Positions 45,949 to 64,000 of a stretch of DNA of 64,000 nt are shown here, one piece after another. Both the position numbers and the translations under genes were made by a program. Numbering within the stretch: position 1 is the first letter of the stretch; each line of letters opens with the position of its first letter. The notes below the pieces were generated by a model. It was not told the origin of the DNA and did no database searches. It saw only the letters and a program-made list of their open reading frames with translations. Location of the stretch: contig JAZNDZ010000005.1 in assembly GCA_045588345.1 (NCBI GenBank), positions 1,138 through 65,137 of the forward strand, written 5' to 3'. Source of the stretch: Bacteroidaceae bacterium. GTDB lineage: Bacteria > Bacteroidota > Bacteroidia > Bacteroidales > Bacteroidaceae.

Positions 45949-45970
45949 CATCAACTTAAATGATTGAAGT

Positions 45971-47383: not shown

Positions 47384-47546
47384 CACCTTTAAAATTTTGA
47401 TAATTTTTCAAATCTGAAATTGCTGACCTACATTACTAAATCAAGAGCTTGGAGTATGGAAAGTCTGGAAATCTTACATGAAGTAATCATGAATCCGGCC
47501 TTAGTATCGAAACATAAACCTATTACATTGATAATTAATGATGCGT

Positions 47547-47608
47547 TGCCGGGAATTTAATGAGTTGACACCCATAAATTCCCGTTGCTTATATTCACCA
47601 AAAGAATA
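47547..47608 (+). repeat. Copy B of the ~60-bp hairpin-containing repeat
   Basis: Contains a perfect 10-bp inverted repeat CGGGAATTTA (47550-47559) / TAAATTCCCG (47575-47584). It has the same orientation as copy A and lies between the convergent ATPase gene and the operon end. Confidence 0.6.
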
Positions 47609-47653
47609 AAATCAGTAAATAATCATATGTTTTTTAAATACAAAATCCATGTT

Positions 47654-48415
47654 TTAGAAATTAGGATCAATCAACGATGAAAAATCTGCAAATTTCCCGT
47701 CAGTATGATTTATAAGCCTTTCTAGTGCTTCTGCAATTTGTTCGTTAAGATACCTTATATTCCAATCGCTGTTGTAATACTTTGTATAATAGTACATATT
47801 TTCTATCATACGTATATACCTACTTTTGAAGTCTTCACATGCAAATGGATTTTCCCTATCAAAGTCAGCTTGTGCTTTTTTTAATATTGTTTGAAATTCT
47901 TGATATGAGCTTTCATATTTTTTTAGTGGTTCCTGCACAATAGAATATTCCTGCTTGAAATTAGCCGAATATATTCTGTCAAAATAAGATATGGCCTCTT
48001 TAACAGCGACTCTATCGTATCTTTCGTACAACCACCTATTTGCAAGTTTAACCATACAAGTGTCAACAAACCCCATATTCCCTTGCAGTTTAGCAATTTC
48101 TTTCTCTTTATTGCAAATAACTAACATAAGGGAATCTTTTTGTCGATTTGCTCTTACAATCATTCTCATTGAGTCTTGCTTTGCACTACGTCTTATGGAA
48201 TCTATGAGTTTAATGTTTGCATTAGCAATGCTATCACGATGCGACAATTCACGACGGAGAGAATCTGCTACATACTTTATACTATCAACATTTTCAATCT
48301 TATCTCTTTCAATTTTCCCTTTAAAAAGGGGTTGTCTTTGTTTCTCCTGGGCTGTAACATTAATATTTACAAGACACAGGAAAAGCATAATTGTTACTAA
48401 TTCTTTTATTTTCAT
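47654..48415 (-). CDS. Hypothetical secreted coiled-coil protein (operon gene 9)
   Basis: 253 aa with a signal peptide MKIKELVTIMLFLCLVNINVTAQ and charged heptad-like sequence. It starts 5 nt after gene 8. Confidence 0.6.
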   Translation of the reverse strand: MKIKELVTIMLFLCLVNINVTAQEKQRQPLFKGKIERDKIENVDSIKYVADSLRRELSHRDSIANANIKLIDSIRRSAKQDSMRMIVRANRQKDSLMLVICNKEKEIAKLQGNMGFVDTCMVKLANRWLYERYDRVAVKEAISYFDRIYSANFKQEYSIVQEPLKKYESSYQEFQTILKKAQADFDRENPFACEDFKSRYIRMIENMYYYTKYYNSDWNIRYLNEQIAEALERLINHTDGKFADFSSLIDPNF

Positions 48416-48420
48416 TTCCT

Positions 48421-49689
48421 CTAATTATTTTCGTACGGTATCAAAACATATCCTCTATCTGTACCTTTGCTTACAGAACTATCCTTACGATATACAACAT
48501 AAATAGTATATGTTGACGACTTACTTAAGTTACTCAATGTCACGGTTTTGTAATTATACAAGTTTGTACCTGATGAAGGGCTTCCTTTAGTTGTAGTATA
48601 ATTTGAACTAGTTGTAGGTCTTGAGTCCTTACCAACCATAACATAATCATGATCAGACTCACCATTACTGCGGATATAGAATGTAAATGTATCATACCCC
48701 TTGATTGTAAAATACATTGTTGCTTCAGAATTATCTTTATTATAGTTGCTAGAAGATTGATAAGCTCTATATAAAGTACTTGGTGATATCATACTAGTCC
48801 ATTGGTAATTAGTAGTGATATTTATTTCCTTTCGAGTATAAAACTCTTTTGCATTTCTGTAATATTCAGCTGCTTTTTGCTTTAATGCATCAGTCGTTTT
48901 TGCTCCATATCCATATTTAGATTTATTATTATCGTACTCTTGAATTTTACTATTTGCAGCAGACATCAATGAGTTGAATGACTCTTCTGTCATGTTACGA
49001 TAATTTGCCATCTCATTGACTTTTGATTCAACTTGATAATAATGCGAATTACCGATATTAGACTTTACAGCTGCTAGTTTATTTGTCAAATCTGTACAAT
49101 TTGACAAAGGATCCATTGTCCTATACTTTTCAGCATTCTGTATCTTTGTATTGGCATCGCTCACAGAATAGAATGTAGAATATGTCGCTACTTTCTTTGC
49201 TTCCTTATAGTTGCTAATAATCTGTTCTATTCTGCGAAGATCAGTCTCATATGAACCCGCAACTGCACTAGTTTCCCCATAATCAACTTTTAATGTTCTT
49301 AGATGTGCTATACGCTCAAGCATAGCTTTATGGTCAGACTCACGCCAAGTTGATGCTCTGAACTTTGCATGACTTAATTTCGTGAAGATAGGCAGATATT
49401 TCTGTACTAATGCTTTCGTTTGATAATCAATTTCTTCGTCAGTCATAAAAGCCTCACTCTTATATAGAGCAAGTTTGTCAACAACAACATTATATATCGA
49501 ATCATTGAAAGCAGTGTTCTCCGTTTCAGAAAAACCGTTGATATTAGCTTCAAGAGAAGATTTATGCAAATTATTTACCGTAACATCCACAGGAGGTGCC
49601 ACAATCGTGGGATAGAAAGCAAGAATACCCGCAATTGCAAATGCAATAACGATTCCTAGAATAAGGATTTTTTTACCAGTATTTTTCAT
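48421..49689 (-). CDS. Hypothetical N-terminally membrane-anchored protein (operon gene 8)
   Basis: 422 aa with one N-terminal TM (ILILGIVIAFAIAGILAFYP), a helical middle and a beta-rich C-terminal ~100 aa. Its start overlaps the gene 7 stop (ATGA). Confidence 0.6.
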   Translation of the reverse strand: MKNTGKKILILGIVIAFAIAGILAFYPTIVAPPVDVTVNNLHKSSLEANINGFSETENTAFNDSIYNVVVDKLALYKSEAFMTDEEIDYQTKALVQKYLPIFTKLSHAKFRASTWRESDHKAMLERIAHLRTLKVDYGETSAVAGSYETDLRRIEQIISNYKEAKKVATYSTFYSVSDANTKIQNAEKYRTMDPLSNCTDLTNKLAAVKSNIGNSHYYQVESKVNEMANYRNMTEESFNSLMSAANSKIQEYDNNKSKYGYGAKTTDALKQKAAEYYRNAKEFYTRKEINITTNYQWTSMISPSTLYRAYQSSSNYNKDNSEATMYFTIKGYDTFTFYIRSNGESDHDYVMVGKDSRPTTSSNYTTTKGSPSSGTNLYNYKTVTLSNLSKSSTYTIYVVYRKDSSVSKGTDRGYVLIPYENN

Positions 49690-51035
49690 AACATATCTCC
49701 TTGTTTTGTTTTTGACTTCTGTTGCACTTTAGGTTGACTTTTCTTTGTCGTACTTGTTGTACTAGTTTTCTTAGTCTTATGAGTCGTTCCTGCATCCTCG
49801 AGCGCTTTTATATAACCTTTCTTATCGCCATCAGGCTTAATAGTTATATCGAAATCATTAGGATGTGTATTAAAGTTACCAGAGAAAGGCTTATGACGAT
49901 TTTTGGTTATCGCAGCTACCAGTTCTTTGAATATTGCGGATTTGCCAAGAACATTCTCATAGGCCAGTATATCATCAAAACGTCTCTCATTCATTGCATC
50001 CCACAAACCTTTTAGCGGTTCGTGTTTTTCCATCTCAGTTCTGTTCCAGACATTATTATGGTCTATATATGAGATCGCTGCATCTACTAATTTTTCATCA
50101 CTATTACTCTCTGAACCTTTTGGTGCATAATTGTAGTTGCGTTTTTCTAACTCCTTAATGCGACTCTTCAAATCAGCATTTTCTTTCGTTAATTTGCCAA
50201 CTTCTTGATTATCTGCCTTACCTCCAATAAAGTCGTTTAAAGCATAACCACCGCAGATACCGAGCAGTAGGACTATTATAGAACATATCAGGCATGTAAT
50301 CCAGAATTTGCGAGTGAATGGCTTGAATCGCAAGTAATTTTTATCATTGCGTGTAACATATCCATTTTCTGTTACATAGCCTTTCACAGGCGAATTTTTC
50401 ATTTTTCTATTGCCAGATATCTTAATTGGGTAATAGCCCTCTTCATTTTTGAGAGGCAATAGAAACTCATATGCATATGTCTCCTTTACTAATTTTAATT
50501 GTACAGGTTGTGTTAAATTCAAATGACCAGAAATTGGTTCAAAACCTTCAGCATGAATTTTTACCCAAACATTATTAAGAGTTGCTTCGCTAATGCGTAT
50601 ATCTTCGTTTTTACTAATACGCTGCTTCGCTACATATAAGTCGTAATCAGTTACACGTTGACTCCATTCATCAACTACTTTTATGTAATTATAGTTAAGC
50701 ACTCTAACATATTGATTAGGTGTTGGAACAGAATACTTTGCGCCAGGCGCAATTATACTCTTCGTATGGATAGGCATATACCCATCTCTTCTCCATTCAA
50801 TATCTATCGTACCTCCTTCAATGGCATAAATCTGTCCAACAAAAGGTCGCTCTCCAATATAGGGAACAAAAGAATCTATTTTCCCAGGTGATTTTACTAC
50901 TACCATCGAGTATACTTTCTGGTCTGACAAGTTATCTCCTTGAAGGCATTTTAACTTCGATGAATTATCTAATAGGAATACACTCTTATAACTCTTATAA
51001 TATGATTGACACATATCTTTTAGAAGCTCAGACAA
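49686..51035 (-). CDS. Hypothetical bitopic membrane protein (operon gene 7)
   Basis: 449 aa. Beta-rich N-terminal ~235 aa, a central TM (FWITCLICSIIVLLLGICGGYAL), a coiled-coil (LTKENADLKSRIKELEKR), a C-terminal globular part and a Lys/Thr/Ser-rich tail. Confidence 0.6.
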   Translation of the reverse strand: MSELLKDMCQSYYKSYKSVFLLDNSSKLKCLQGDNLSDQKVYSMVVVKSPGKIDSFVPYIGERPFVGQIYAIEGGTIDIEWRRDGYMPIHTKSIIAPGAKYSVPTPNQYVRVLNYNYIKVVDEWSQRVTDYDLYVAKQRISKNEDIRISEATLNNVWVKIHAEGFEPISGHLNLTQPVQLKLVKETYAYEFLLPLKNEEGYYPIKISGNRKMKNSPVKGYVTENGYVTRNDKNYLRFKPFTRKFWITCLICSIIVLLLGICGGYALNDFIGGKADNQEVGKLTKENADLKSRIKELEKRNYNYAPKGSESNSDEKLVDAAISYIDHNNVWNRTEMEKHEPLKGLWDAMNERRFDDILAYENVLGKSAIFKELVAAITKNRHKPFSGNFNTHPNDFDITIKPDGDKKGYIKALEDAGTTHKTKKTSTTSTTKKSQPKVQQKSKTKQGDML

Positions 51036-51053
51036 TGTGTACTTTGCTCCTTG

Positions 51054-51494
51054 TCAATAGTATCTGAATGCACACTTTTCGCCATTGCTTTTTGTAGTGA
51101 TTCTAGATGCAGGTGCTGATTCATATGTTTTCGAAAGAAGTTGGGTTAATCTTTCATCATTTCTTTCGTTAGCAAGAATCTCTTTTTTAACAGCATCTAC
51201 TATTTCAACAAGTTCCTTTCCTGCAATATTAATTGAAGCAGGAACATATATCCATGCGCTAATACAATCAGTGATACGACCCTCAATAAGCGAAGCTACA
51301 GTTAATATGTGTCCAGTATCAATGCTTGTAAGCATTAGTACTGCTGATGAACCATCCAAGTTATCAATGTTCTCAAGGTCTTTGCGGATATCCCAGACGT
51401 TCTTAGTCCATACCTGGTCTCCGTTTATTTCAAATAAATCTGTATAACCCTGATTTATACGAACTATCTTTAAACCTAATTTATTATTATCCAT
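51054..51494 (-). CDS. Small soluble protein, possibly Roadblock/MglB-like (operon gene 6)
   Basis: 146 aa, starting 6 nt after the GTPase gene. The stretch LDGSSAVLMLTSIDTGHILTVASL resembles the Roadblock/LC7 core pattern. This is a weak assignment made by eye only. Confidence 0.55.
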   Translation of the reverse strand: MDNNKLGLKIVRINQGYTDLFEINGDQVWTKNVWDIRKDLENIDNLDGSSAVLMLTSIDTGHILTVASLIEGRITDCISAWIYVPASINIAGKELVEIVDAVKKEILANERNDERLTQLLSKTYESAPASRITTKSNGEKCAFRYY

Positions 51495-51500
51495 AGTTTG

Positions 51501-53147
51501 TTACTTTTTTAATATGTCAAACAAGTTCTTAATCTTTCCAGGTTTGTATCCATAAGACCTCTTAATGAGTGTTCTAACAACCGTTGCTGCTGTATCTTCT
51601 TTGAATTTACAGTAGTTCTGGAAACATACTGTACCTAACGTAAATGGCTGGATCTCCACATTACCACCATTTATTTCATTGTCCTTACAAATCTTCTTCA
51701 AACCATTATAGAAGCCTTGATAGTTCTCAGAGATATAGTTTCTCAGTTTTTCCTGCAACTCCTTGCCCACAGCTTTTGCTTTATCAACCTTAGTAATAAG
51801 GAGATATAAGCCATCTGTGTCCTTTTTGAAAATTCCTGTTCTCTGGATATAAGCCACAGCTGCTTCTAGATAGATATTTTGAGGCAGACCTTCATACTCT
51901 CTGTCCTCAGCACCATACTCTATCACAAAGAAATGAATCTTTCGGTTATCAGTTCTGTTATCAATTAATATGTTGGTCAATGTCTTAAGAACATTCTGCT
52001 GCTCATCTGTCAAAGGCTCTCCGGCGTCTTGCTTATACATACATCTAACAAGCTCACCTGCGAGGTCAATACATGTAATTGGATGCTCTTTTCTGTCTTC
52101 ATCTTCGAGAATAAAACCCATTTCATAAGTAGATGATATTGCGGTACCCTCAGGTAGTGTACCAACAGCACCATTTGTCTTGAATAGATTAGCCAATCTA
52201 TTCATATATCCGTAGCCCTGACAATCTGGGTCACGTTGCATGCTTTTTGCAACTCTACCACTATTAGCAGAACTCAAAATTGCACCTAATGCACAACTTT
52301 TACCAGATGACGGAATACCCCAAAAGTAAACTTCTGTACATGGAGACTTTGTAATCTTTGTTATTGGTTCAGGAGTTTGGAATTTCTGAGGAGTGATATT
52401 AGACATCATGTGTGCAATGAAATCGCCATCAATCCCCGCTCTTGAAAAGTCTGATATAATTCCGTTCTCCCACAACAAATTTGCAACCGTACCGCTAATG
52501 AAGTTATTATCCTCTGAGATAGCAGAAAGAAGGTCATCTACACTAATTTTGCCCGTATTAATGCAGTTGACTATTCTATCATATATAGCCTTCTCTGGAT
52601 TATTAATTCTAGCATCTGTACGTATTGCCTTAATCTGTCTTGCAAGAGCTCGGATATCAACTCCTAGATATTGTTCTCTGCGCAACTCTCTTAAAAGGCG
52701 TGTGGCTTCTGCAAGGTAAGTACTATTAGGATGATTGTCTACAAAATTTTGCAGTTCAGTAATACTTCCTTTGTTAACGCTATCCCAAATCTCATCACTG
52801 GCGCCACTTTCCGCCAATTTCTGCAGTTCCTCAATTCTATCACGGGCAGAACTTCGATATTCGCCTTCTGGATACGAATCAAGGTAATTTTGGTATGCCT
52901 CTTCTGTATTAATGCGTTTGGCTTCTTCCCAGTCTTCCTCTTCGCAGTTCGCAAATTTCTCAGCGACCTGATCCTGTATAGACTTTTTTACAGGTGTACC
53001 TGCTTCTCGAGCCGCATCTCGAAACTCTTCAAAACTCTTTATTCCGGCCTGTTTCAAGGCCTTTACTAGGTCATCGATGTTGTTGCTGTACTCATCGATA
53101 TTATCAAATATAGTATCTAAATCAATCATATTATTGGAATTTTTCAA
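51501..53147 (-). CDS. P-loop GTPase with Ras-like G1/G3/G4 motifs and a helical N-terminal extension (operon gene 5)
   Basis: 548 aa. G1 GIPSSGKS, G3 CIDLAGE and G4 ITKVDK appear in canonical order and spacing. The N-terminal ~270 aa are helical, with two similar segments (YQNYLDSYPEGEYRSSARDRI and LQNFVDNHPNSTYLAEATRLL). Confidence 0.7.
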   Translation of the reverse strand: MKNSNNMIDLDTIFDNIDEYSNNIDDLVKALKQAGIKSFEEFRDAAREAGTPVKKSIQDQVAEKFANCEEEDWEEAKRINTEEAYQNYLDSYPEGEYRSSARDRIEELQKLAESGASDEIWDSVNKGSITELQNFVDNHPNSTYLAEATRLLRELRREQYLGVDIRALARQIKAIRTDARINNPEKAIYDRIVNCINTGKISVDDLLSAISEDNNFISGTVANLLWENGIISDFSRAGIDGDFIAHMMSNITPQKFQTPEPITKITKSPCTEVYFWGIPSSGKSCALGAILSSANSGRVAKSMQRDPDCQGYGYMNRLANLFKTNGAVGTLPEGTAISSTYEMGFILEDEDRKEHPITCIDLAGELVRCMYKQDAGEPLTDEQQNVLKTLTNILIDNRTDNRKIHFFVIEYGAEDREYEGLPQNIYLEAAVAYIQRTGIFKKDTDGLYLLITKVDKAKAVGKELQEKLRNYISENYQGFYNGLKKICKDNEINGGNVEIQPFTLGTVCFQNYCKFKEDTAATVVRTLIKRSYGYKPGKIKNLFDILKK

Positions 53148-54152
53148 TTACATAGTGAATGAACCGTAATCGCCTTCGTTTGAAGAGGAATCATCATCCA
53201 TACTAAATGTCATATCATCTTCAGGGCGGTCAATTTTGCTAGTTTTCTTAGACTTTTTGCGTTTGGGTGTATATGAGTCACCTTCAGAGCCAATGAGTCT
53301 AAATGTACTTTTGGTATTTCTACTTTGAATGATGTACGGAAACAAAAGCAATATATATAGTAGGACTCCAATACCAATTGCAAGCATTGATGGGGTACCC
53401 ATTGTTGTGTACACAGAGCGTAGATTATTTAGGTTCTCCTTAGCCGTTGTTACACTTGGATCAGAGGATGAGAATGGTTCGACTCCATTGGGTTCGTCTG
53501 ACATAATTTTACCAGAGAATTCACTTAGCGAGTTATTCCAATTTTCAATAGCGCCTTCAATCTTTTTGATGTTGCCAATCATAAAGACATTCCATACAGT
53601 CGCCCCTGATGCATTATCAATCCACTGAACCGCTGATTCTTTCAAAGCATTATAATTATCAGCAATCAATTGCAGTCTAAGAGCCTCTACTTCGTTAGTT
53701 CTATGAACAGTCTTTGTTTTATTTTGAGCCAATTTCTTGTCATACTCCTTTATTCTATTATTTGCGTAGACCTCATAAGATTCAAACATACCCTTTGTTG
53801 TCTTTATAGACTCTGAGAAAGTCTTTTCTACTTGACTTCGGTTATCAAAAACTGTCCAAAAGTGAGCATATGGGACCATTACCGCAATAAAGGACAAAGG
53901 TGCAGAGAAGAAAAGAATACGCTCAAAAACGAACTTTCTGCAAAATTTCTCATCAGCCCCTTTCAAAATTTGAGGTATGATGAAAAATATAATCAGTACA
54001 AGATTGATTATCAACACGCCCAATCCCGCATACAGGAAATCTCCATCAGTCAAATATGTGATTCCCATAAATGAGACATAACTGATAAATATCAGTGCAA
54101 TAAATGCAATGATATGTCCCCATGAAAATTTTAATGTTTCATTAATTGCCAT
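53148..54152 (-). CDS. Multipass membrane protein (operon gene 4)
   Basis: 334 aa. Three N-terminal TM helices, a ~150-aa loop, a fourth TM (MLAIGIGVLLYILLLFPYII) and a charged tail. Its stop abuts the gene 5 start. Confidence 0.65.
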   Translation of the reverse strand: MAINETLKFSWGHIIAFIALIFISYVSFMGITYLTDGDFLYAGLGVLIINLVLIIFFIIPQILKGADEKFCRKFVFERILFFSAPLSFIAVMVPYAHFWTVFDNRSQVEKTFSESIKTTKGMFESYEVYANNRIKEYDKKLAQNKTKTVHRTNEVEALRLQLIADNYNALKESAVQWIDNASGATVWNVFMIGNIKKIEGAIENWNNSLSEFSGKIMSDEPNGVEPFSSSDPSVTTAKENLNNLRSVYTTMGTPSMLAIGIGVLLYILLLFPYIIQSRNTKSTFRLIGSEGDSYTPKRKKSKKTSKIDRPEDDMTFSMDDDSSSNEGDYGSFTM

Positions 54153-54161
54153 ATATCGTCC

Positions 54162-57140
54162 TTATTTATTTTCAGGTAATAATTTTTCAAGTTCACTTAT
54201 CTTTCTCTTATAGGATTCTATTAGTTTTCTAATAGAATCGTAATCTGTTCCATCATTCTCATCTTCAGATGTTGGCGGAGTTGTTTTACCATTATCATTT
54301 CCCGGATCCTTAGGACTTGGTTTGTTTCCAGGATTATGTACATCTTGGCCTGGCGTTTTACCAGTATCGCCAGGATTATCTCCATCTACATTGCCACCTG
54401 TTTCTCCTGAATTCTCATTGACTGGTGATTCTCTATCGATTGGGTTATTACCAGAACCTCCATCCACTACATTAGGATTTGTAATTTCGTTATTGGCATT
54501 ACCATTTGTGTCTGGGAGTTCTGGTATCACACCTGTTTTCAACGCTATTAGAGCATCGTCAACTTGAATCATAGGTGGCATATAATCAGATGCTCGCTCA
54601 CCAGTTGCCTGTAAAATATGAAGTACTTCTGTCACCGAGATATCTTGGTTTAAACTCTTCATTAATGCTACCGTACCTGCAACTATTGGAGCAGCCATAC
54701 TTGTACCATCAAATACGGCATATTCATTGACGGGTATAGAACTATAAATGCCCTTACCTGGAGCAGAGATGTTAGAACCTCTACCATAATTGGTGAAGTC
54801 TGTACCTTTTATTTGCCTATCAACAGCAGCGACATTTACGGTGAAATTCGTTCGATTCTCAGGAGGAATGTTTGCGAGTATATTGTCATTACCTACTGCA
54901 AAAACGATTATCACATTATGCTCATTTGCGACATTAATAATACGTTTCCACACACGCTCTTCGTTTTTGAATTGAGTTTTAGCAATATAATCCTGGTCTG
55001 GGAGAGGTAGTATATCTAGTCCTCTGAAATTCGGACCAATAGATACATTTACAACATTCGCTCCATTGTGAATGGCGTACATTATTCCGCTTGTTACTGA
55101 CGAAAATGTACACATACCATTGTCAAATACCTGTATTGGCATTAGTTTACATTTAGGCGCAACTCCAGATACGCCTTTGTCAAACATCTTATCAGAGCCA
55201 ACTGGCAATCCAGCTACGTGTGTACCATGTCCCTGGCCAACACTTAATCTATTATCCTGAGTAAACACATTGTAAGGGCTTACAATTCTTCCTTTAAGGA
55301 TATCATGTGTTGCATCAATACCATCATCAACAACTGCTACGGTGATATTTGGGCTTCCCTTAGTAATTTCCCAACCTTCTTCTACATCAATTGCATCAAG
55401 ATGCCAGCCTATATTTGCTGTATCCGTACTAATATCGCCAACAATGGTAAAAATTGACTCATCAACTATGAAAAACTCATAGTTTGGAAGCTGTGCATTC
55501 AAACCCTCTCTAATAGCGTCTCGCATATTTTCAGAAATAAGAATCTGTATCATTGTCACATTCTTATCAAAGCCAATGACTTGACACTCATTTTCTGAAT
55601 ACATCTTAGAAAGGTCTGATATAAACTGTTCAAGGTCTACATTCGCGTCTTCAAAGTATATATTTAGCCTATTTGCAACAATATCTGGCGTCCCAGGATT
55701 TGAAACAATAGGAGGCTCTTTGCCGTCATCCCCTACGATAGGTGCTACGACATTATTATTAGGCAACTTGCCATCATCACCAACAATACCCTTGACAGGT
55801 CCATTGTTATCAATAACACGCCCGTCATTTGTCTCAATTACAGGTGTAGGCTCTACTGGGCCACCGCTTTCACATGATCTTAAAAGCCATGACAATAAGA
55901 ACAGCAAAAGTAATAGGAGTAACAACCACAATAGCCACTTTAAACATCCTTTACCTGTAAACCAAGCCCATAAGCGCTTATACCATGGTATGTCCTTTTC
56001 ATATTGAGCTGTAAATGTTGTATCACCATTCAAAGTGTAATCAATCGGTGACTTGTCCCAACCTATAAACTTATAACCTCGTTTAGCCTTAATTGCCGGG
56101 GTATTATCATTATTGAATATTGAACCATAAGGCAGTGTAAAGCAATCTGTACCCTCAATTGAACCGTGTTCACCAGCGACAAATTGACATGTTACATTAT
56201 CTCTATTGAAGATAGCAGTGAAAGTTGCATCCTCATAGATAGCTCCCAAATCGGGCTGAATATCCCAGCCAACGAAAGAATAACCGTTATTAGGTACAGC
56301 CGATGGAATTTGCATTACATCTAGATATGTCCCCTTCTCTATGGAGCATTCAGTTGTTCCACTCAATGAGCCGCCAACACCTGCTAAGAAGGTAATATGC
56401 ACATTTTCTTTTTCTGCGGGAACATCATCTTCAATAGGTGCCTCATCATATAGTGCTGTAAAAGAAAGAAGTCCATTAACCTTCATACCCAATGGATTTG
56501 GATCCCATCCCTTAAATACATATCCCTTCTTAGGAGTTACGGTAGGCAGATCAATATTTGATAATGTGGCACCATCAGGGCGACTAACAACCCCAGCTAA
56601 TTTATCTGTAAGAGTGCCATTTTCTCCTACAATAAAACGTACTTTGTGATTGCTTTGAATCTTTAAATCATGTATTACTGCACCCTTCACGACATGTTTG
56701 TGAGAGTCAGGCGACATACCCCAAGCAACTACTACTACTTTTTCATCATAGCAGAACATAAAGTCCTCATCAATATACTTGAGGGCACCTGTTAGAATCT
56801 GCTTATCCTCACCTGTCAGATTTTTACGTACTTTTTCATATGCTGCAATTGTTTTTTCTTTTATCGCAGCATACTTAGCCTTATCAACATCTGATAAATC
56901 ACTATATGCACACGGTGTATGATTCCACTCGCGCACATACCATAATATCTGATCCTCATCTGAATATATAGGATGAGCTAGAAAGTCTCTATATTGAGGC
57001 TCTACATTCTTCTCAACTACTGAATATACGCTGTCAAATCTCTTGTACAGCGGATCGCGACCGATTCCTTGGAAATCGGTAAAATCAGTAACCTCTGTGT
57101 AACAGAGTTTTCTCTTGCCATATAGAGTATGTTCTGCCAT
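54162..57140 (-). CDS. Membrane-anchored subtilisin-like (S8) serine protease with an N-terminal domain and three Listeria-Bacteroides-type repeats (operon gene 3)
   Basis: 992 aa with no signal peptide. Repeats GYVFKGWD, GYSFVGWD and GYKFIGWD; TM WLLWLLLLLLLLFLLSWLL; S8 triad contexts VAVVDDGID, GHGTHVAG and GTSMAAPIVAG; then a low-complexity N/G/P-rich tail ending in a coiled coil. Confidence 0.8.
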   Translation of the reverse strand: MAEHTLYGKRKLCYTEVTDFTDFQGIGRDPLYKRFDSVYSVVEKNVEPQYRDFLAHPIYSDEDQILWYVREWNHTPCAYSDLSDVDKAKYAAIKEKTIAAYEKVRKNLTGEDKQILTGALKYIDEDFMFCYDEKVVVVAWGMSPDSHKHVVKGAVIHDLKIQSNHKVRFIVGENGTLTDKLAGVVSRPDGATLSNIDLPTVTPKKGYVFKGWDPNPLGMKVNGLLSFTALYDEAPIEDDVPAEKENVHITFLAGVGGSLSGTTECSIEKGTYLDVMQIPSAVPNNGYSFVGWDIQPDLGAIYEDATFTAIFNRDNVTCQFVAGEHGSIEGTDCFTLPYGSIFNNDNTPAIKAKRGYKFIGWDKSPIDYTLNGDTTFTAQYEKDIPWYKRLWAWFTGKGCLKWLLWLLLLLLLLFLLSWLLRSCESGGPVEPTPVIETNDGRVIDNNGPVKGIVGDDGKLPNNNVVAPIVGDDGKEPPIVSNPGTPDIVANRLNIYFEDANVDLEQFISDLSKMYSENECQVIGFDKNVTMIQILISENMRDAIREGLNAQLPNYEFFIVDESIFTIVGDISTDTANIGWHLDAIDVEEGWEITKGSPNITVAVVDDGIDATHDILKGRIVSPYNVFTQDNRLSVGQGHGTHVAGLPVGSDKMFDKGVSGVAPKCKLMPIQVFDNGMCTFSSVTSGIMYAIHNGANVVNVSIGPNFRGLDILPLPDQDYIAKTQFKNEERVWKRIINVANEHNVIIVFAVGNDNILANIPPENRTNFTVNVAAVDRQIKGTDFTNYGRGSNISAPGKGIYSSIPVNEYAVFDGTSMAAPIVAGTVALMKSLNQDISVTEVLHILQATGERASDYMPPMIQVDDALIALKTGVIPELPDTNGNANNEITNPNVVDGGSGNNPIDRESPVNENSGETGGNVDGDNPGDTGKTPGQDVHNPGNKPSPKDPGNDNGKTTPPTSEDENDGTDYDSIRKLIESYKRKISELEKLLPENK

Positions 57141-57144
57141 ATAC

Positions 57145-59988
57145 TTAATTATTTATATATAGGGTACTGCTAGTGTCAATTATGTCTTTAATAGCTGCAT
57201 TTGCTACTGAATCAACATGGGAGATATCACTGGCGAATAGTAATCCTATCGTAATAAAGTTCTCCCAACGCTGGTAACTATCCCAGAATGGCAACTTTTT
57301 TAGTGTCGCTAAATCAATGCGAGAATTGTTCATCTCATCTCTTGATTGATCAAGAGCCGAAAGGACTTCTAATAGAGGCTGAGGCTTTATATTCGAACTT
57401 GATGCTGCCGGGGACAAATCAATCTCCAAATGGCATGATTTTGCCTTTTGTGCAATATTTGCCATATCCTTTTCTGACATATATTCTCGACCTACTGTGC
57501 TAACAAAGTTATTTAATGTCAAAGAGGCATAATCAGCTATTGCATTAGGGAGTCCATTTCTATCAAAAACATCGTAATATCTATTTATCTTATCCGAAAT
57601 AGCTCGCTTAACACCAAGTTTGTTCAATAATGTTAGAATCATGAATGCTATCTCATCTGCATGAGGAAGCACATCGCCCATATTTTTTACTTGTTCGTTA
57701 ATATGGTTATTCCAATACTCAATGATGTGTTTAGCGATAACATCGGGGACAGTGGCTAGTAATTCACTTTCATCAGATATTACATCCTCTAATGTGACAC
57801 CCATTTCGGCAAAGAACGATTTTAATTCACTCTCTTCCTTATTGTATCTCTTGCAGAGTTTCTGGATATTAGTAGACTTATCATCGTTAATATCAATCTC
57901 ACAGAATGCACGAATCATCTTAATAGATGACACGCTCTGCGGTTCCTCAATATGACGAACTATGATGTCGTATGCAATGGTTCGAATGTCTGCAGACGAT
58001 ACCATCAAATCATCAATGATACGACCAAATCTTTCAGGTTTTTCACCAAAAGCAAATTCAGTCCTTAGTTTAATGTCTCCTGTAATTTGGCGTATTCTCA
58101 CATTGTTTTCTTCCTTGTCATCAGACTCATAGTAAACGCTTAACCTATTGATGATTTCATCGCGTATTTCTATAAGTTGCTGCAAGTATCGTTCGTGTCT
58201 TGCGTCATCAAGCACTTCGGCTATGGCATCAAGATTCCTAATGATAGCCTTAGAACCATCATTGTTAATTGTTGCTACATCATCCCAAGCTTGTTGAGGT
58301 TTAGCAAAATGCTTTTTAACAAAGGGATTTGCTAGGAAACTTTCTCTCAAATCGTCAAAATATCCCGGGTATTCATCGAATATATGGACACTACTCTCGG
58401 TAGTTCCCTTTTGCTCATTATATCCGTCAAACACTTGGTTTTTAGAGGACCAATAAAAGTCTCGAAGCAAATATACATTTTGGAAGCAAGGAGATGTAAA
58501 TGAGCCTCCTAGAGACACCCATTCATCAAGCCACTTCTCGGGCTCAATAATTTTTGGAATTGTAGTATTGAACCTTGCCCAGTGGTTGTCTAACTTTGAG
58601 GCTGACTCAGGCGTATCGTTCTTCGTTTTTTCAAGGTCAATGTTGAACTTTGTACAAATCAAAAACAGAGGTGCAATACCATTTGTCCTTGATAGTACAT
58701 TGGCTCTAACATCAGGTGTTTCACCGATATTATCCTCAATCCAATTATGTATAGATGCTCCAATTGTAGGTTCAGTCTTTTGGTCATTATGATGACAGAA
58801 GAGTACTGAACTAATCTTCAAAGAACGAGAGTACTTATTAAATAAATAGGCGACTTTTCCTCTTCGAAGAATCGTGGGCAGAACTTCTCCCAACTGCTGT
58901 TCCTTGATTTTTTCTCGGGATCGTGCACCCGGAAAATCCAATAAATCAATCTTCTTCAGGAATTTTCTTTCTGTTGCGATATCCTCTGGCAATACAAAAG
59001 TTAATTCTCCGATTAAAGCAGAGAGGTATGCTTTACTAAAATCTTTTGCAATAAGTTCGCCTTCACGATTATATACGTCTGTATAAAGGACATCATCATT
59101 AGACTCTTTATGAATACCACATACCGAATCAAGCCAATCAATCTTAAGCAATGTACCTTTATCTCTTAGTACTGCGTCGAACGGCACATACACTTCAGTT
59201 AAAAAGTCTAATTTTTTGTACTCATTGATAAGGGTACTGAACAATCTGTTTAACTCTGGATTATTATTCCATATAAGGCCAAAAATATTAACCCAGTTAT
59301 CGCTTGCTACATAACTAATAATAGGGGCAATAATTTTGCAAAAATTTGACTTGCAAATATTTGCAGCATTATTTCCAATGATATCATTGAGATAATCACA
59401 AATATCTCTTATGTCATCCTCAGTAATAATATTGTGAGCTGGCGACTTCCCACTCCACAATTCTTTCATTTGAGACAGAGAATTATCTATATCAGTGTTG
59501 AGCATAACACTATCCGTGTTAATCTTAACATCGTTATAATAAGAGTCTGCCAATAAAAGAATGATATCGACTACTGACAAGTTTGTGATTTTCACATAGT
59601 CAGCCATCTTCTTATTACTTTGCCTAATTGTAAAGCGAGTTATAACACCAGTAGATTCCTGTTTGGTATTATTGCCTCCGCTAGGATTAATCTCATCAAT
59701 AAAACTATAGCGAACGCCATTATTCTCAATAACAAATGGAGCATCTGGCGTTGACAGAAGGCTACTCATCAGATAGGATTTTCCGACCTGACTCTCACCA
59801 TATGCTGCAGCAGAACAGTTCTCCGAGAGAGCTTCTCCAATCCTTCTCAGCTTTCTGCGATAATTCTTAAACACTTCCCTTGGGAATGAGTCTTTCTCGT
59901 ATTTATCTGCCCAAGCAACTGATTGCTTGATAACTTCGAGGTTAGTAATTATATCTCTTGTCATATATGCCAAATTCAATTTATTCAA
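57145..59988 (-). CDS. SrfC-like large P-loop GTPase (dynamin-like) (operon gene 2)
   Basis: 947 aa. Walker A/G1 GESQVGKS (residues 64-71), candidate G2 GVITRFT, G3 LLDFPGARSRE (DxPG as in dynamins), candidate G4 CTKFNID, and a long helical C-terminal half. Confidence 0.65.
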   Translation of the reverse strand: MNKLNLAYMTRDIITNLEVIKQSVAWADKYEKDSFPREVFKNYRRKLRRIGEALSENCSAAAYGESQVGKSYLMSSLLSTPDAPFVIENNGVRYSFIDEINPSGGNNTKQESTGVITRFTIRQSNKKMADYVKITNLSVVDIILLLADSYYNDVKINTDSVMLNTDIDNSLSQMKELWSGKSPAHNIITEDDIRDICDYLNDIIGNNAANICKSNFCKIIAPIISYVASDNWVNIFGLIWNNNPELNRLFSTLINEYKKLDFLTEVYVPFDAVLRDKGTLLKIDWLDSVCGIHKESNDDVLYTDVYNREGELIAKDFSKAYLSALIGELTFVLPEDIATERKFLKKIDLLDFPGARSREKIKEQQLGEVLPTILRRGKVAYLFNKYSRSLKISSVLFCHHNDQKTEPTIGASIHNWIEDNIGETPDVRANVLSRTNGIAPLFLICTKFNIDLEKTKNDTPESASKLDNHWARFNTTIPKIIEPEKWLDEWVSLGGSFTSPCFQNVYLLRDFYWSSKNQVFDGYNEQKGTTESSVHIFDEYPGYFDDLRESFLANPFVKKHFAKPQQAWDDVATINNDGSKAIIRNLDAIAEVLDDARHERYLQQLIEIRDEIINRLSVYYESDDKEENNVRIRQITGDIKLRTEFAFGEKPERFGRIIDDLMVSSADIRTIAYDIIVRHIEEPQSVSSIKMIRAFCEIDINDDKSTNIQKLCKRYNKEESELKSFFAEMGVTLEDVISDESELLATVPDVIAKHIIEYWNNHINEQVKNMGDVLPHADEIAFMILTLLNKLGVKRAISDKINRYYDVFDRNGLPNAIADYASLTLNNFVSTVGREYMSEKDMANIAQKAKSCHLEIDLSPAASSSNIKPQPLLEVLSALDQSRDEMNNSRIDLATLKKLPFWDSYQRWENFITIGLLFASDISHVDSVANAAIKDIIDTSSTLYINN

Positions 59989-59991
59989 CCA

Positions 59992-62900
59992 TTAAAAATC
60001 AAATGCTCCAGAATCCAACCAATATTGATCATCAACACCCAAACTCTGAATGTGAATCTCAATACTGCTATCAGACAATTCAACTCCATTTCTATCTTTG
60101 ATAGAGCTAATAGTTAGATTCTCCTTATCTTCAGGATCACGGTCTATCGTAATCTTAAATGGCATTCGTTTTTTGAAACCCTCTACCTCGTCATTCGCCA
60201 TTGACTGAACAGCTGCATCTGAAGGATTATACCCGTTATCCAATGCTTTATTACGAATTTTGTTTACCAATTTCATATAGTTAAAGTCAATGGAATACAG
60301 CGCCCTTGACGGATAACTGGTCAAGCCGAATTGACGAACATTTAAGATATCAGGGATTCGGCTTACAGTCAGTTCTCCCTGCAACTTATCAGGAGTAATT
60401 AAGTACTCAATAGGCTGGCCATCTCTTGATGCTTCAATATAGTTGACCGTAGACTTCAGATTGCTCTTGAGTTTCTCCAAATTAATGGAGAACTTATCAA
60501 GATTAGAGTACTCGGAAGCATAATGGCCAATTACACCTCCCATAGCCACTATGGTCTTTGGATTGGTGATATATCCAGTGTTTTGACAGAAAGGGTACCA
60601 ATCACCAACATAGTAGTTGTTTAGAGTTATAAGTCGATTTGGCGATACAGGATAGTACTTTAAGAAGATGTTTCGTATTGCTGGTAACGATGACGGTCTT
60701 CCTGACAGTAAAATCACATCACAGGAATAAGCAAAGAACATTGTGGCAATCTTCTTCAAAAGTGGTTCAAACTCCTTTGAAATAATATCGGCTACGAACT
60801 CCTTATTGTACTCCCAAGTAAGAGATGTGATGTCTATTCCCATCCTTCTCTTAAAGTCGTCTATTACGCGTTGGTTAGGTTGGTTAACCTTAAATACATC
60901 GTCATACTTAACTATACAACTACAGCTATCATTTGATGCCAACTCCAAGAAATATGTCATCAACGGGATAGAATACTGTATATTGAAATCGCGCCTTGCA
61001 ATGCGATCGGCAATAGTTTGACCATTATAATCTGGGCCAAAGAAATTCTTAATCTTTTGCCTATACTGTATTGGGTCAAGACTACGAAGAGCCTTGCGGA
61101 AAGCACTATGCTTTTCGTCAAGCAACATCACATTCTTGACTAAGGCCTTGAGCATATCATCGCCTGCAAAATAGAAACTATCGTAAAACTTTGGATCCGG
61201 GGTAATGGTAGTTAAGTCACCTTTTGTGAAAGAGTATTCGCTAATCATCAAATCGGATGTTCCTGCTCCAATATCCAATGAACCAACTGTAAGTGTAGGT
61301 TGCTGATTACCATCCACAACCTTTCCGTACAAATTAAAGAATTCGCTACATACGCCTTTGTATTTATGGCCTACCTCGCCATAAATATACACGAGTTGAG
61401 CGCAAGTCGCTTCATCATAATACCACGAGCCATCATTATCCTTCATTGAACGTACAGCTGGTATAATATCGATGGCAGGAGCTCCATTGCCGTATATAAA
61501 TCTGCCATACAATGTAACAGCATCTTTAGCACATTTCACAAGGGCCTCTCTCTCAATCTTGGACATTGCGGTCGGGCAAGTAATAATTATTCGCTTTATC
61601 TTGCGTGGAACTGTTTTCCAGCCAACATCAATTCGATATGGCTCACTATTAATCTGGCTATTAGCCTGCGAGAGCATCTCCAAGAAGGCAAAGGTCATAA
61701 GGCTCCTTCTAGAGTAATGTGAAGAGCGCCCACCATCAGTACCTGTCACATCGATTCGTCCATCGCTCATAAGATTGGAACTAATGCCTCGAATATTAAG
61801 TATGTGATTAGACTCTTCACCTGGAAGAACTAAAAATTCCCACTCCTTTTTGCTTGGCTTATTATCCCACAAGTATCTTTTAGGACTTGAGTATGTTGAC
61901 AATGTCTCCTCTTCCCATGCTGAACTACAAGCGCGATGTATAAGGGCGCTTGCTTCCTGACCAAGTCTGATAAAGCTAGGATACACAAATTGCTTGCTAT
62001 CATTAATGCCAAAAGAGCCGAAATCAACTCTTCTAAAGGCTAAACGCATGTCGAAAGGTTCGTTGTAAGAACGGATACGAACTTTGTCATCTTTTTCCTG
62101 TAACAAATCCGTGTAATCAATTAAACTTAAAGGCTTAACTTGATTAAAATTCGAATTATCTTCAATCAATAATGCAGTAGTTCTAGAATTGCCAATATCT
62201 ATTACCATATCAACATTTCTAACTTCGACATCTTGGTCTTTGTACAACTTTATAGCTGGGAATAATTTGTTTTGAGCCAAATAATTCACCAAGAAAATGT
62301 AAGATGCAATGTAAGACATCTTGTGAGTATTTGCGCCCTTGATTTGCGACACACTGCTGAGTGTAGGATGAACCAATTTGAAAATATACTCATCAATATA
62401 GCTCCAATTCTCCTTTGGGGAACAATAGTCCATCAAGAAAAACTCGTTGTCGCATAACGCAAAATTCATCTCAGAGCAATACTGGTCAGGGAATACCGGA
62501 AACTCATTATATTCATCAGACGAATAACCAGCTCTTGTATCAAACGCGAGAATAACATCGTATTCAAGTTCGGTTTTACCTTCACTTCTAGGCACAAACT
62601 TAACTCGAGACCAGTTCATTGGGCTAAACTTAAAGCGCTTCTCTGTTCTTTTGAAAAAGTATGGAATAGGAATCCATTTATTCTCAAAATTCTTTAATGC
62701 GTTATGTTTGTCAGAGAAAGTCAACTTATATAGCTCTCCTCTGACTCCGTTGCACATTTCATCATCAATCTTGAGAGAATTGATTCCGTCATTTCGCAAT
62801 TCTATAGGATCATATTCGATTGTTGGGTCGTTCAGATAGCCTCCATCGAATAATTCGTGCTTGTCGTAAAACAAAACATTATCATCGGTAGCAACTTCAT

Positions 62901-63042
62901 GGGCAAGGTCCAATCTCCATTGCCCATTACTTGTGTCATACCATTCTCGGAACCACATTTTAAATTTATCCTGAGTATTCAATTTAAGTCTGAATGTCAG
63001 CAATTGAATACCTGAATTCGCTATCAATGAGAAGCTGTCCAT
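59992..63042 (-). CDS. SrfB-like protein with an actin/Hsp70 (ASKHA) ATPase core (operon gene 1)
   Basis: 1016 aa. The N-terminus SLIANSGIQLLTF resembles the SrfB family start as I recall it. ASKHA motifs occur in order: VIDIGNSRTTALL (phosphate 1), ITCPTAMS, DEATCA, LDIGAGTSDL (phosphate 2) and ILLSGRPSSLPAI (adenosine). Confidence 0.7.
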   Translation of the reverse strand: MDSFSLIANSGIQLLTFRLKLNTQDKFKMWFREWYDTSNGQWRLDLAHEVATDDNVLFYDKHELFDGGYLNDPTIEYDPIELRNDGINSLKIDDEMCNGVRGELYKLTFSDKHNALKNFENKWIPIPYFFKRTEKRFKFSPMNWSRVKFVPRSEGKTELEYDVILAFDTRAGYSSDEYNEFPVFPDQYCSEMNFALCDNEFFLMDYCSPKENWSYIDEYIFKLVHPTLSSVSQIKGANTHKMSYIASYIFLVNYLAQNKLFPAIKLYKDQDVEVRNVDMVIDIGNSRTTALLIEDNSNFNQVKPLSLIDYTDLLQEKDDKVRIRSYNEPFDMRLAFRRVDFGSFGINDSKQFVYPSFIRLGQEASALIHRACSSAWEEETLSTYSSPKRYLWDNKPSKKEWEFLVLPGEESNHILNIRGISSNLMSDGRIDVTGTDGGRSSHYSRRSLMTFAFLEMLSQANSQINSEPYRIDVGWKTVPRKIKRIIITCPTAMSKIEREALVKCAKDAVTLYGRFIYGNGAPAIDIIPAVRSMKDNDGSWYYDEATCAQLVYIYGEVGHKYKGVCSEFFNLYGKVVDGNQQPTLTVGSLDIGAGTSDLMISEYSFTKGDLTTITPDPKFYDSFYFAGDDMLKALVKNVMLLDEKHSAFRKALRSLDPIQYRQKIKNFFGPDYNGQTIADRIARRDFNIQYSIPLMTYFLELASNDSCSCIVKYDDVFKVNQPNQRVIDDFKRRMGIDITSLTWEYNKEFVADIISKEFEPLLKKIATMFFAYSCDVILLSGRPSSLPAIRNIFLKYYPVSPNRLITLNNYYVGDWYPFCQNTGYITNPKTIVAMGGVIGHYASEYSNLDKFSINLEKLKSNLKSTVNYIEASRDGQPIEYLITPDKLQGELTVSRIPDILNVRQFGLTSYPSRALYSIDFNYMKLVNKIRNKALDNGYNPSDAAVQSMANDEVEGFKKRMPFKITIDRDPEDKENLTISSIKDRNGVELSDSSIEIHIQSLGVDDQYWLDSGAFDF

Positions 63043-63140
63043 ATTTTTTACTTTTAACTAAACTTCAATTGTTGTGATTTTTTTTGCATCTCCTAACAGG
63101 AGATAGATTATTTTACCTAACAAATCGTAAGTTTATATGC

Positions 63141-63167
63141 AAAAAAGGAGCTCGCTCCCGAACTCCT
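63141..63167 (-). terminator. Terminator after the integrase gene, upstream of the operon
   Basis: The minus strand reads GGAGTTCG-GGAG-CGAGCTCC (one mismatch) followed by TTTTTT, 24 nt after the integrase stop. Confidence 0.55.
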
Positions 63168-63190
63168 CTAAAAAGCAGCAATCATAGCTT

Positions 63191-64000
63191 TCATAATAAT
63201 TTTAGTATTTTCTTATTGGCTTTGTCTATTACATGCGTTTCCAAAGAGGCCAGATATATCTGTGTAGTACTCTCAGAGTCATGTCCCATAGCTTCACTAA
63301 TAACAGATATTGATATTCCTTCATTTCTTGCAATACTTGCCCACGAATGGCGCGCAACATACATTGTCAATGGTAAGTTCAACCCCAACTCTCGACCAAT
63401 CGCTTTTAAGTTATGATTTATAAGTGTTAAAGCATTATGATACTGTTTTCGAGTATTCTTGGTAGGGTCTTTTATAATCGAAAGAAGAAATGGAGAAGTC
63501 AAGGATGAGTATTGATCAACAATCTTTTGCATACAATCTTCCCAATGGATAGATAGTAGTTGCCCTGTTTTCTTTCTTCTGTATGTCAGAACATCATCTG
63601 TCAGATTCTTCTTTTGCAAGTACGCTATATCCACAAATGACATACCTCGTGTATAGAAACTGAACAAGAATATATCACGAGCGAAACTCTTTGATGGAGA
63701 ACAACTCAGATCCAAATCTTTTAATTTGCGAACAAACTTCAACGGGATAGCTCTCTTAATAGTTTTTTCAGATGATGTAAACACCTTTTTGAAAGGATTC
63801 TTATTCTCCACATAACCATCTTCTACAGCATTATTATATATCGCCCGTAAGCGTTTCATATAGAAAGAGATTGTGTTGGGAGCCAATCCCTTCGCTCTCA
63901 AATGATACTCATACGAAATAAGCATTTCCGAATCAATACCATCAAAGCATACATCTACACCTTCCCTAAACTTCCTAAAACTATTAAGAGTTGCTTGATA
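63191..64000 (-). CDS. Tyrosine-type site-specific recombinase/integrase; N-terminus lies off the window
   Basis: The frame stays open upstream of the track Met to base 64000 (...YQATLNSFRKFREGVDVCFDGIDSE-MLISYEYHL). A SAM-like domain is followed by the catalytic region ARHSWAS...GH...TQIYL. Confidence 0.85.
   Translation of the reverse strand, partial: YQATLNSFRKFREGVDVCFDGIDSEMLISYEYHLRAKGLAPNTISFYMKRLRAIYNNAVEDGYVENKNPFKKVFTSSEKTIKRAIPLKFVRKLKDLDLSCSPSKSFARDIFLFSFYTRGMSFVDIAYLQKKNLTDDVLTYRRKKTGQLLSIHWEDCMQKIVDQYSSLTSPFLLSIIKDPTKNTRKQYHNALTLINHNLKAIGRELGLNLPLTMYVARHSWASIARNEGISISVISEAMGHDSESTTQIYLASLETHVIDKANKKILKLL

Follow-up and report, generated by a model that had tools for sequence, protein, structure and literature searches.

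The window examined in this study is a 64 000-nt stretch of a Bacteroidaceae bacterium contig (accession no. JAZNDZ010000005.1, positions 1138–65137; assembly GCA_045588345.1), and all coordinates given below refer to it. A gene located on its minus strand (54162–57140) encodes a subtilase of 992 amino acids (aa), whose residues 1–148 were established by sequence comparison as a remote homolog, at the domain level, of SrfA-N, the domain at the N-terminus of the Salmonella ssrAB-activated protein SrfA. The gene is preceded by homologs of srfB and srfC. The reading that we favor, with a probability of about 0.65, is that its product takes the place of SrfA as a subunit of a SrfB/SrfC system of Bacteroidota. 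This product would be a bitopic inner-membrane protein with a cytoplasmic N-terminus and a periplasmic C-terminus (N-in/C-out), in which the SrfA-N domain docks SrfB and SrfC, and these may control a protease zymogen.

Domain organization and membrane topology of the subtilase

The organization of the gene (all features on the minus strand) is given below together with the evidence for each part (AF2, AlphaFold2 model; HMM, hidden Markov model; ORF, open reading frame; pLDDT, predicted local distance difference test; TM, transmembrane).

54162–57140, minus strand: SrfA-like bitopic pro-subtilisin, whole gene (992-aa ORF, ATG start)
56697–57140, minus strand: SrfA-N-like domain, aa 1–148, degenerate kinase-like fold, predicted cytoplasmic (AF2, hhalign, HMM)
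56439–56654, minus strand: Flg_new (Listeria-Bacteroides) repeat 1, aa 163–234 (Pfam, AF2, repeat comparison)
56199–56408, minus strand: Flg_new repeat 2, aa 245–314 (Pfam, AF2, repeat comparison)
55992–56198, minus strand: Flg_new repeat 3, aa 315–383 (Pfam, AF2, repeat comparison)
55872–55988, minus strand: juxtamembrane module PWYKRLW.W.TGKGC(399)LK, TM helix (402–420) and R-S-C(423), aa 385–423 (hydropathy, conservation)
55683–55871, minus strand: extended linker with a tandem IVGDDGK(L/E)P motif, aa 424–486, predicted periplasmic (conservation, AF2)
55350–55682, minus strand: subtilisin-type propeptide (beta-alpha-beta-beta-alpha-beta) and junction, aa 487–597 (AF2, Foldseek)
54531–55349, minus strand: S8A catalytic domain, aa 598–870 (Pfam, triad conservation, PDB match)
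55326–55328, 55227–55229, 55047–55049 and 54699–54701, minus strand: codons of D605, H638, N698 and S814, respectively (codons checked)
54246–54530, minus strand: variable, disordered N/G/P/D-rich spacer, aa 871–965 (conservation, pLDDT)
54165–54245, minus strand: conserved C-terminal amphipathic helix DYDSIRKLIESYKRKISELEKLLPENK, aa 966–992 (conservation, AF2)

The stop codon of the srfC-like gene lies 4 nt upstream of the subtilase ATG, and M1 is invariant among homologs, which rules out an upstream extension hiding a signal peptide. At least 473 homologs were found in Alistipes and other Bacteroidales, the full-length ones reaching down to 50% identity; the closest cluster has 589 members, which come from assemblies of metagenomes (Logan and ENA). 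The conservation figures given for the protein refer to an alignment of 52 non-redundant homologs.

According to a 2026 preprint, SrfA-N lies in the cytoplasm at the N-terminus of canonical SrfA and has a degraded kinase-like fold; in an AlphaFold3 model of proteobacterial SrfABC, it forms a platform binding SrfB and then SrfC. It is followed in canonical SrfA by a disordered linker, one TM helix and a periplasmic, disulfide-bearing lipocalin-like domain. The preprint mentions neither protease fusions nor SrfA in Bacteroidota.

Several comparisons relate the subtilase's N-terminal domain to SrfA-N. The family SrfA_fam (NF040486) was the sole NCBIfam match of aa 1–167 at E ≤ 10 (E = 0.13, collinear). 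Collinear alignments were also obtained using hhalign with Salmonella SrfA (E = 1.2e-3), Rahnella SrfA (E = 2.5e-4) and a canonical SrfA profile (E = 2.5e-4), and these revealed the common motifs D(F/C)LA.P...D.(I/V).WY and V(V/I)..WG(M/F). An HMM built from 149 family N-termini matched SrfA of both Salmonella (5.6e-8) and Rahnella (4.6e-8). A profile search with the N-domain against 1.84 billion representatives identified 240 proteins, in which the domain is always N-terminal and nearly always followed by one helix; more than half of the N-domain relatives compared with SrfA_fam (24 of 46) matched it, the best with 7.6e-13. A word-indexed search with Salmonella SrfA gave only close enterobacterial relatives among the best 120 matches listed, and therefore added little diversity to the canonical SrfA profile. 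Across homologs, the N-domain shows 74% identity, which equals the conservation of the catalytic domain.

The initial reading of this DNA, made from the sequence alone (referred to below as the sequence-only reading), had suggested predicting the structure of residues 1–150. This was done with AF2 for aa 1–171 (pLDDT 81; predicted template modelling score 0.73). In a Foldseek comparison of the model with PDB, all of the top 50 matches were protein-kinase-like folds, none of them significant (best E = 0.026; template modelling score, TM-score, 0.25–0.37), and this uniformity agrees with the published description of SrfA-N.

The C-terminal half of the protein is, by profile, triad and predicted fold, a true S8A pro-subtilisin and a putative protease. 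Peptidase_S8 (PF00082) matched aa 598–847 with 145.9 bits (cut-off 21.8; E = 2e-42), and the residues D605, H638, N698 (the oxyanion Asn) and S814 are invariant. The best PDB match of the catalytic domain was AK.1 protease (4.5e-32), with thermitase second. The motifs VAVVDDGID, GHGTHVAG and GTSMAAP, recognized at the outset as lying downstream of a hydrophobic helix, were located at positions 601, 637 and 812. A misalignment of the catalytic residues, which had been named as a possible objection, did not occur: the D-H-S triad and the oxyanion Asn align with the motifs of AK.1 protease.

Upstream of the catalytic domain, AF2 predicts a propeptide fold spanning residues 487–565, composed of four strands (487–496, 519–525, 530–535 and 556–565) and two helices (503–513 and 537–550). 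The best Foldseek matches of the full-length model in PDB were unprocessed pro-subtilisin E, Tk-subtilisin, fervidolysin and SUB1, with 395–489 aligned columns. For pro-subtilisin E and Tk-subtilisin, the E value was ~1e-20 and the TM-score 0.7–0.8 (normalized to the target), at a model pLDDT of ~90. As modeled, residues 487–870 are a complete pro-subtilisin fold, i.e. propeptide plus catalytic domain.

The linker preceding the propeptide (aa 424–486) is 64% identical among homologs and is modeled by AF2 with a pLDDT of ~90 and without regular secondary structure; possible roles are wrapping around the protease and metal binding. Its tandem motif (KGIVGDDGKLP / APIVGDDGKEPP) is highly conserved. 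The N/G/P-rich tail and terminal helical element described in the sequence-only reading were also recovered. Residues 871–960 are the sole poorly conserved region of the protein (16% identity, 42% gaps; AF2 pLDDT ~30), and the last ~30 residues (71% identity) contain a predicted helix (967–987), with a comparable helix in the Runella ortholog. A Pfam scan at E values up to 10 gave nothing meaningful for the tail, the linker or the 334-aa protein encoded downstream of the subtilase.

A Kyte-Doolittle scan (19-residue window, threshold 1.6) revealed a single segment above the threshold, aa 402–420 (WLLWLLLLLLLLFLLSWLL; value 2.76), and a helix is located at about residue 400 in every full-length homolog. 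The top 9-residue hydropathy within the first ~70 residues is 0.61, and the subtilase is therefore devoid of a signal peptide. The lone hydrophobic helix and the missing signal peptide had both been correctly noted from the sequence. The description of the topology as “inverted-looking” was overstated, as the order signal-anchor, propeptide, S8 is the usual one in exported subtilases; what does stand out as unusual is the large cytoplasmic head before the anchor.

An N-in/C-out topology, with the N-terminal ~400 residues in the cytoplasm and the protease in the periplasm, had been expected from the sequence, and every computational test supports this orientation. Five arguments point to it: (i) the absence of an export signal, since nothing ahead of the 400 folded residues could export them; (ii) the charge bias around the helix; (iii) envelope modules in relatives; (iv) natural gene splits; and (v) the pro-subtilisin fold following the helix, which is the architecture of exported zymogens. 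The enrichment of Lys and Arg just upstream of the helix, on which the expectation was based, amounts to 5 K/R and 1 D/E in the 20 residues before it versus 1 K/R and 4 D/E in the 20 residues after it. In 102 family representatives (15-residue flanks), the mean number of K/R was 3.5 before and 2.0 after the helix, with the bias positive-inside in 70 proteins versus 13 (Wilcoxon p = 3e-11).

As regards envelope modules, one N-domain relative carries an OmpA-like peptidoglycan-binding domain at 354–476, with its helix at 289; such a domain must be periplasmic. Other relatives have papain-like C1 or von Willebrand factor A (vWA) domains after the TM helix. In the split loci of Flavobacterium, Sphingobacterium and Weeksellaceae, three genes fill the slot of the subtilase gene. 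They encode (i) a ~250-aa protein in which SrfA-N is joined through an acidic linker to a C-terminal tail anchor, (ii) a ~165-aa anchored Cys-containing protein and (iii) a ~450-aa S8 protein with its own hydrophobic N-terminal anchor.

The three repeats upstream of the helix scored above the gathering thresholds of both Flg_new (PF09479; 35 bits versus 27) and Flg_new_2 (PF18998; 36.6 bits versus 23.6). The repeats (~70 residues each) are mutually similar (z = 13–22 versus 300 shuffles) and are modeled by AF2 as beta-rich units (pLDDT 80–88). Their motifs GYVFKGWD, GYSFVGWD and GYKFIGWD, read from the sequence as preceding the helix, begin at 206, 286 and 355. It had been argued that either the charge-based orientation or the surface location expected of such repeats must be wrong, and it is the “surface-only” expectation that fails. 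With an N-in/C-out protein, the Flg_new repeats would lie on the cytoplasmic side and not at their usual location, and they should not be counted as evidence for surface exposure. The repeats are a Bacteroidales-specific insertion; relatives from Runella and Flavobacterium have a disordered acidic linker in this position.

AF2 predicts helices at 386–395 and 399–422, and the helix and the juxtamembrane motif are kept in all full-length homologs. Conserved Cys residues are present on both sides of the helix (G-K-G-C before it; [RK]-[GS]-C, often extended to C-x-x-C, after it); they may form a disulfide or a metal site or contact a partner. In 98 of 102 relatives, the first 10 residues following the helix include a Cys, usually as L-L-[RK]-[GS]-C. 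This position would also suit an internal lipoprotein-type signal, with cleavage before Cys423 splitting the chain into an SrfA-N protein with a tail anchor and a lipidated protease, products that would resemble the naturally split genes. Such processing is very unlikely and was rejected on lipobox grounds: the window protein has L-R-S-C instead of [LVI][ASTVI][GAS]C, and the canonical core occurs in just 1 of 148 relatives, position −2 being mostly R or K. Many relatives have C-x-x-C, suggesting a disulfide or a metal site, and the Cys in question is missing from the split S8 genes. A reversed topology, with the N-domain and the Flg_new repeats outside and S8 in the cytoplasm (as in intracellular subtilisins or IetS), would agree with the extracellular location of Flg_new repeats elsewhere and with weak PADLOC matches to IetS. 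We consider it barely credible, given that a signal peptide to export 400 folded residues is absent, the charge bias is opposite, the OmpA-domain relatives and the split genes contradict it, and the propeptide architecture is that of secreted zymogens; the IetS/IteS scores come from the S8 core only (28 bits versus a cut-off of 900).

Distribution and genomic setting of the SrfB-SrfC-S8 operon

A scan with the SrfB profile (one genome per species) identified at least 562 SrfB relatives. The best 80 loci are nearly all from Bacteroidota, and almost every complete locus among them shows the gene order SrfB-SrfC-S8-(334-like)-(548-like), where the numbers refer to the sizes of the window proteins. 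The order SrfB-SrfC-S8 was seen in more than 60 Bacteroidota loci, including metagenomic contigs and a Runella plasmid, and a gene for a 334-aa-type protein with four TM segments directly follows the S8 gene in most loci. Enterobacterial loci consist of srfA-srfB-srfC and nothing more.

On the plasmid of Runella sp. SP2 (accession no. NZ_CP031031; locus L005, 1–21150), a SrfB-SrfC-S8-312aa-GTPase block is located directly downstream of BREX genes (pglZ, brxL). The S8 protein of Runella is without Flg_new repeats and has an extra Cys-rich C-terminal domain. In loci of Crocinitomicaceae (L052) and Draconibacterium (L087), each operon encodes two SrfA-N single-pass proteins, one bearing S8 and the other a different periplasmic head or none at all. 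In Fluviicola (L047), only a stand-alone SrfA-N protein (~280 aa) was detected by the HMM, and the N-terminus of the S8 protein is SrfA-N-like by eye only. The sequences of these three loci suggest that several adaptors can share one SrfB/SrfC pair.

In the window, the genes from 63042 down to 47654 are all on the minus strand, with gaps of −4 to 18 nt (3–9 nt between the SrfB, SrfC and S8 genes). Apart from the subtilase gene, they are:

59992–63042, minus strand: SrfB homolog, 1016 aa, no TM segment (PF07520, E = 2e-218)
57145–59988, minus strand: SrfC homolog, 947 aa, no TM segment, P-loop motifs GESQVGKS / DFPG / TKFN (PF10139, E = 4e-101)
53148–54152, minus strand: conserved 334-aa protein with three N-terminal TM segments, a ~160-aa loop, one TM segment and a basic/acidic tail (sequence, conservation)
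51501–53147, minus strand: conserved protein of 548 aa whose C-terminal domain is GTPase-like, GIPSSGKS / DLAG / TKVD (motifs in sequence)
49686–51494, minus strand: ~602-aa gene with one TM segment near aa 390 and an in-frame TGA at 51054–51056 (homolog comparison)
47654–49689, minus strand: two co-directional genes of 422 aa (N-terminal anchor) and 253 aa (signal peptide), both conserved in locus L003

Sequence and profile searches against PDB gave no match for SrfB; for SrfC, the only matches were spurious ones between a short segment and nanobodies. GTPase-type motifs occur in two operon products, SrfC and the 548-aa protein. For the latter, the single Pfam hint was a weak match to DO-GTPase1 (E = 0.12), and a relative of solved structure was not found by sequence. 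The TGA at 51054–51056 splits the ~602-aa gene into ORFs of 146 aa and 449 aa. Intact homologs (561–632 aa) have Gly at this position (RYYGQGAKY), which indicates a GGA-to-TGA change caused by a sequencing error or by a nonsense mutation, in which case the gene is a pseudogene.

The whole operon is contained in a block of low GC content (~45900–64000; ~37%, with values of ~35–40%, versus ~47% upstream), and a tyrosine-integrase ORF (63191–63925) runs toward the end of the window. The block is therefore probably an integrated element. An integrase adjoins srfB at few other loci (e.g. L001), integrase-type domains being present in 3–5 of 145 proteins encoded in upstream flanks.

A 470-aa ATPase_2/DUF234 protein gene (45971–47383, plus strand) adjoins the operon on the opposite strand, and its product is a full-length match to the PADLOC candidate defense family PDC-S27 (E = 2e-200). 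PADLOC analysis of the operon itself gave just a match to the generic S8 core. The upstream flanks (up to 7 kb) of 42 Bacteroidota SrfB loci, encoding the above 145 proteins, contain mostly housekeeping and capsule-type genes; about six of the proteins matched defense models, a count that stands without a matched control set. With so few matches, the BREX neighbor in Runella and the PDC-S27 neighbor in the window are regarded as anecdotes. A defense function was rejected, as a clear defense-island signal was not found in the flanks of the 42 loci.

Proposed mechanism and alternative explanations

If the subtilase is the SrfA-equivalent subunit, its SrfA-N domain would dock SrfB and SrfC, as suggested by the homology with SrfA and the published AlphaFold3 model of canonical SrfABC, and the three Flg_new beta-repeats would serve as a cytoplasmic spacer. 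Judging from the fold, the helix would be an uncleaved signal anchor, so that the zymogen would fold in the periplasm with its propeptide as an intramolecular chaperone. Nucleotide-dependent changes in the SrfB/SrfC complex might, speculatively, control where or when the protease matures. Since the anchor precedes the propeptide in the chain, self-cleavage at the propeptide junction would free the mature enzyme from both the anchor and the cytoplasmic head; it would be retained only if the cleaved propeptide, the wrap-around linker or the C-terminal helix held on to it. Its likely substrates would be found among the envelope proteins of the downstream operon genes or elsewhere in the envelope. 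The most economical, if speculative, version is that cytoplasmic nucleoside triphosphatases (NTPases) control the positioning, oligomerization or maturation of a tethered periplasmic zymogen. The early idea that such NTPases act on a periplasmic protease thereby gains a concrete basis in the SrfA-N homology, and the coupling itself may be presumed by analogy.

Several observations weigh against this interpretation. The window subtilase scored 11.6 bits against the NF040486 cut-off of 150 and so falls outside formal family membership, and the hhalign probabilities were just 20–43%. That the N-domain would bind SrfB/SrfC is extrapolated from the proteobacterial complex as modeled with AlphaFold3 in the preprint. 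Flg_new repeats, placed here in the cytoplasm, are otherwise known from surface proteins. Furthermore, SrfA-N is absent from 27 of 63 SrfB-linked S8 genes, and in most such loci a separate SrfA-N gene was not seen; coupling to SrfB/SrfC, if any, is therefore possible without SrfA-N. Most of these 27 genes (520–700-aa forms) keep the juxtamembrane motif (PFW.PWG..GCL, helix, [RK].C) at residues ~10–50. Given the many short S8 forms, coupling may also run via the conserved helix module and the 334-aa membrane protein.

These short forms, equipped with an N-terminal anchor only, would be readily explained if the protein were an ordinary membrane-anchored exported protease, carried on the same element as srfB and srfC and acting independently of them, with the N-domain and repeats used for anchoring, oligomerization or quality control. 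The interaction with SrfB/SrfC is, moreover, a prediction from modeling and analogy. An independent role is nevertheless rather improbable: in essentially all complete Bacteroidota loci examined an S8 gene occupies the slot after srfC, with tight spacing, and the N-domain is homologous to a SrfABC subunit modeled to bind SrfB/SrfC and is conserved as much as the catalytic domain. It is also improbable that the subtilase is the toxic or effector subunit of a SrfABC-type “toxin”, leaving the cell, e.g. in membrane vesicles, with the protease acting on other cells. The reported cytotoxic and insecticidal activity of Xenorhabdus SrfABC, the argument made in the preprint for vesicle export of membrane-anchored SrfA, and the location of the operon on a low-GC island next to an integrase would all be compatible with such a role. 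Secretion-system genes and a type IX secretion system C-terminal domain were, however, not detected in the operon, the toxicity was observed with proteins over-expressed in E. coli and relates to lipocalin-type SrfA, and the system is widespread in commensal and environmental Bacteroidota.

A broader version of the preferred SrfA-type reading, which we regard as possible but doubtful, is that SrfB/SrfC form a cytoplasmic NTP-driven actuator, acting via interchangeable single-pass SrfA-type adaptors that switch on, position or release periplasmic heads. In the window system, cytoplasmic nucleotide hydrolysis would gate maturation of the periplasmic zymogen and its detachment from the anchor. 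The head would then be a pro-subtilisin in Bacteroidota, and outside them a papain-like, OmpA, vWA or lipocalin domain, and this would be inside-out transmembrane control of a kind so far undescribed in bacteria. The combination of one cytoplasmic head with many periplasmic heads, together with the split and fused forms, argues that transmission across the inner membrane is the conserved logic.

SrfABC has been labelled a “virulence factor” for more than 20 years without a mechanism, and the small binding-type barrel at the end of SrfA provides no assay. With an intact protease precursor in the SrfA slot, the Bacteroidota variant would offer an enzymatic and mutable readout (S814A, propeptide cleavage) for SrfB/SrfC action. 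As SrfB relatives occur in at least 562 representative genomes, the role of the system could matter for envelope biology, for the formation of vesicles or for conflict in commensals that are abundant. In the literature searched, no co-mention of SrfB/SrfC with subtilisin, serine peptidase or Bacteroides was found; a study of phage infection in Serratia just notes that srfCB is down-regulated late in infection.

Comparison with known systems

The window protein has in common with Flg_new (InlB B-repeat) surface proteins its three repeats, which bear the GY.F.GW signature; unlike in those proteins, the repeats are predicted on the cytoplasmic side of the sole helix, and they are lineage-specific. 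It resembles the IetAS anti-phage system in that an S8 protease is genetically paired with an NTPase. IetS/IteS (NF042956; PADLOC IetS) was rejected as an assignment, since the match covers the S8 core only (28.4 bits versus a cut-off of 900), PADLOC found no IetA match among the operon genes, and the partners and architecture differ.

The mycosin MycP (TIGR03921) was the best NCBIfam match of the subtilase (E = 2e-38). Mycosins likewise are S8 proteases attached to the cytoplasmic membrane, and their genes belong to an envelope system that comprises several proteins and includes NTPases. They have an N-terminal signal peptide and a C-terminal anchor, whereas the anchor of the window protein is N-terminal to the protease. 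Identification as a type VII secretion system (T7SS) mycosin was rejected, as the score was 132 bits (cut-off 278.75) and the operon genes match no T7SS family.

Secreted pro-subtilisins (pro-subtilisin E, Tk-subtilisin, fervidolysin) have in common with the window protein the propeptide, the S8A fold, the D-H-S triad and the oxyanion Asn. Instead of their cleavable signal peptide, the window protein has a predicted uncleaved anchor and a ~400-residue cytoplasmic region, and it adds the conserved linker, the disordered tail and the terminal helix.

The closest parallel in overall plan is SrfA (NF040486), which also has an N-terminal SrfA-N-type domain without a signal peptide, then a linker, one TM helix and a folded domain beyond it, and is encoded in the same operon as SrfB (PF07520) and SrfC (PF10139). 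The two proteins differ in the part beyond the helix, which is a pro-subtilisin in the window protein and a ~120-aa lipocalin-like barrel in SrfA; this C-terminal lipocalin-like SrfA-C domain, with its four Cys residues, has no counterpart in the window protein. They also differ in the cytoplasmic part, where three Flg_new repeats stand in place of the disordered linker of SrfA, and in gene position, the subtilase gene following srfC and srfA preceding srfB. Enterobacterial SrfA loci, moreover, are without at least two further conserved genes of the window operon, those for the 4-TM protein and the GTPase. SrfABC is the known, though mechanistically obscure, element of this system, and the protease-headed SrfA-type adaptor is the new one. 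In many Bacteroidota, a protease on the far side of the membrane appears to be connected to two large cytoplasmic proteins, SrfB and SrfC.

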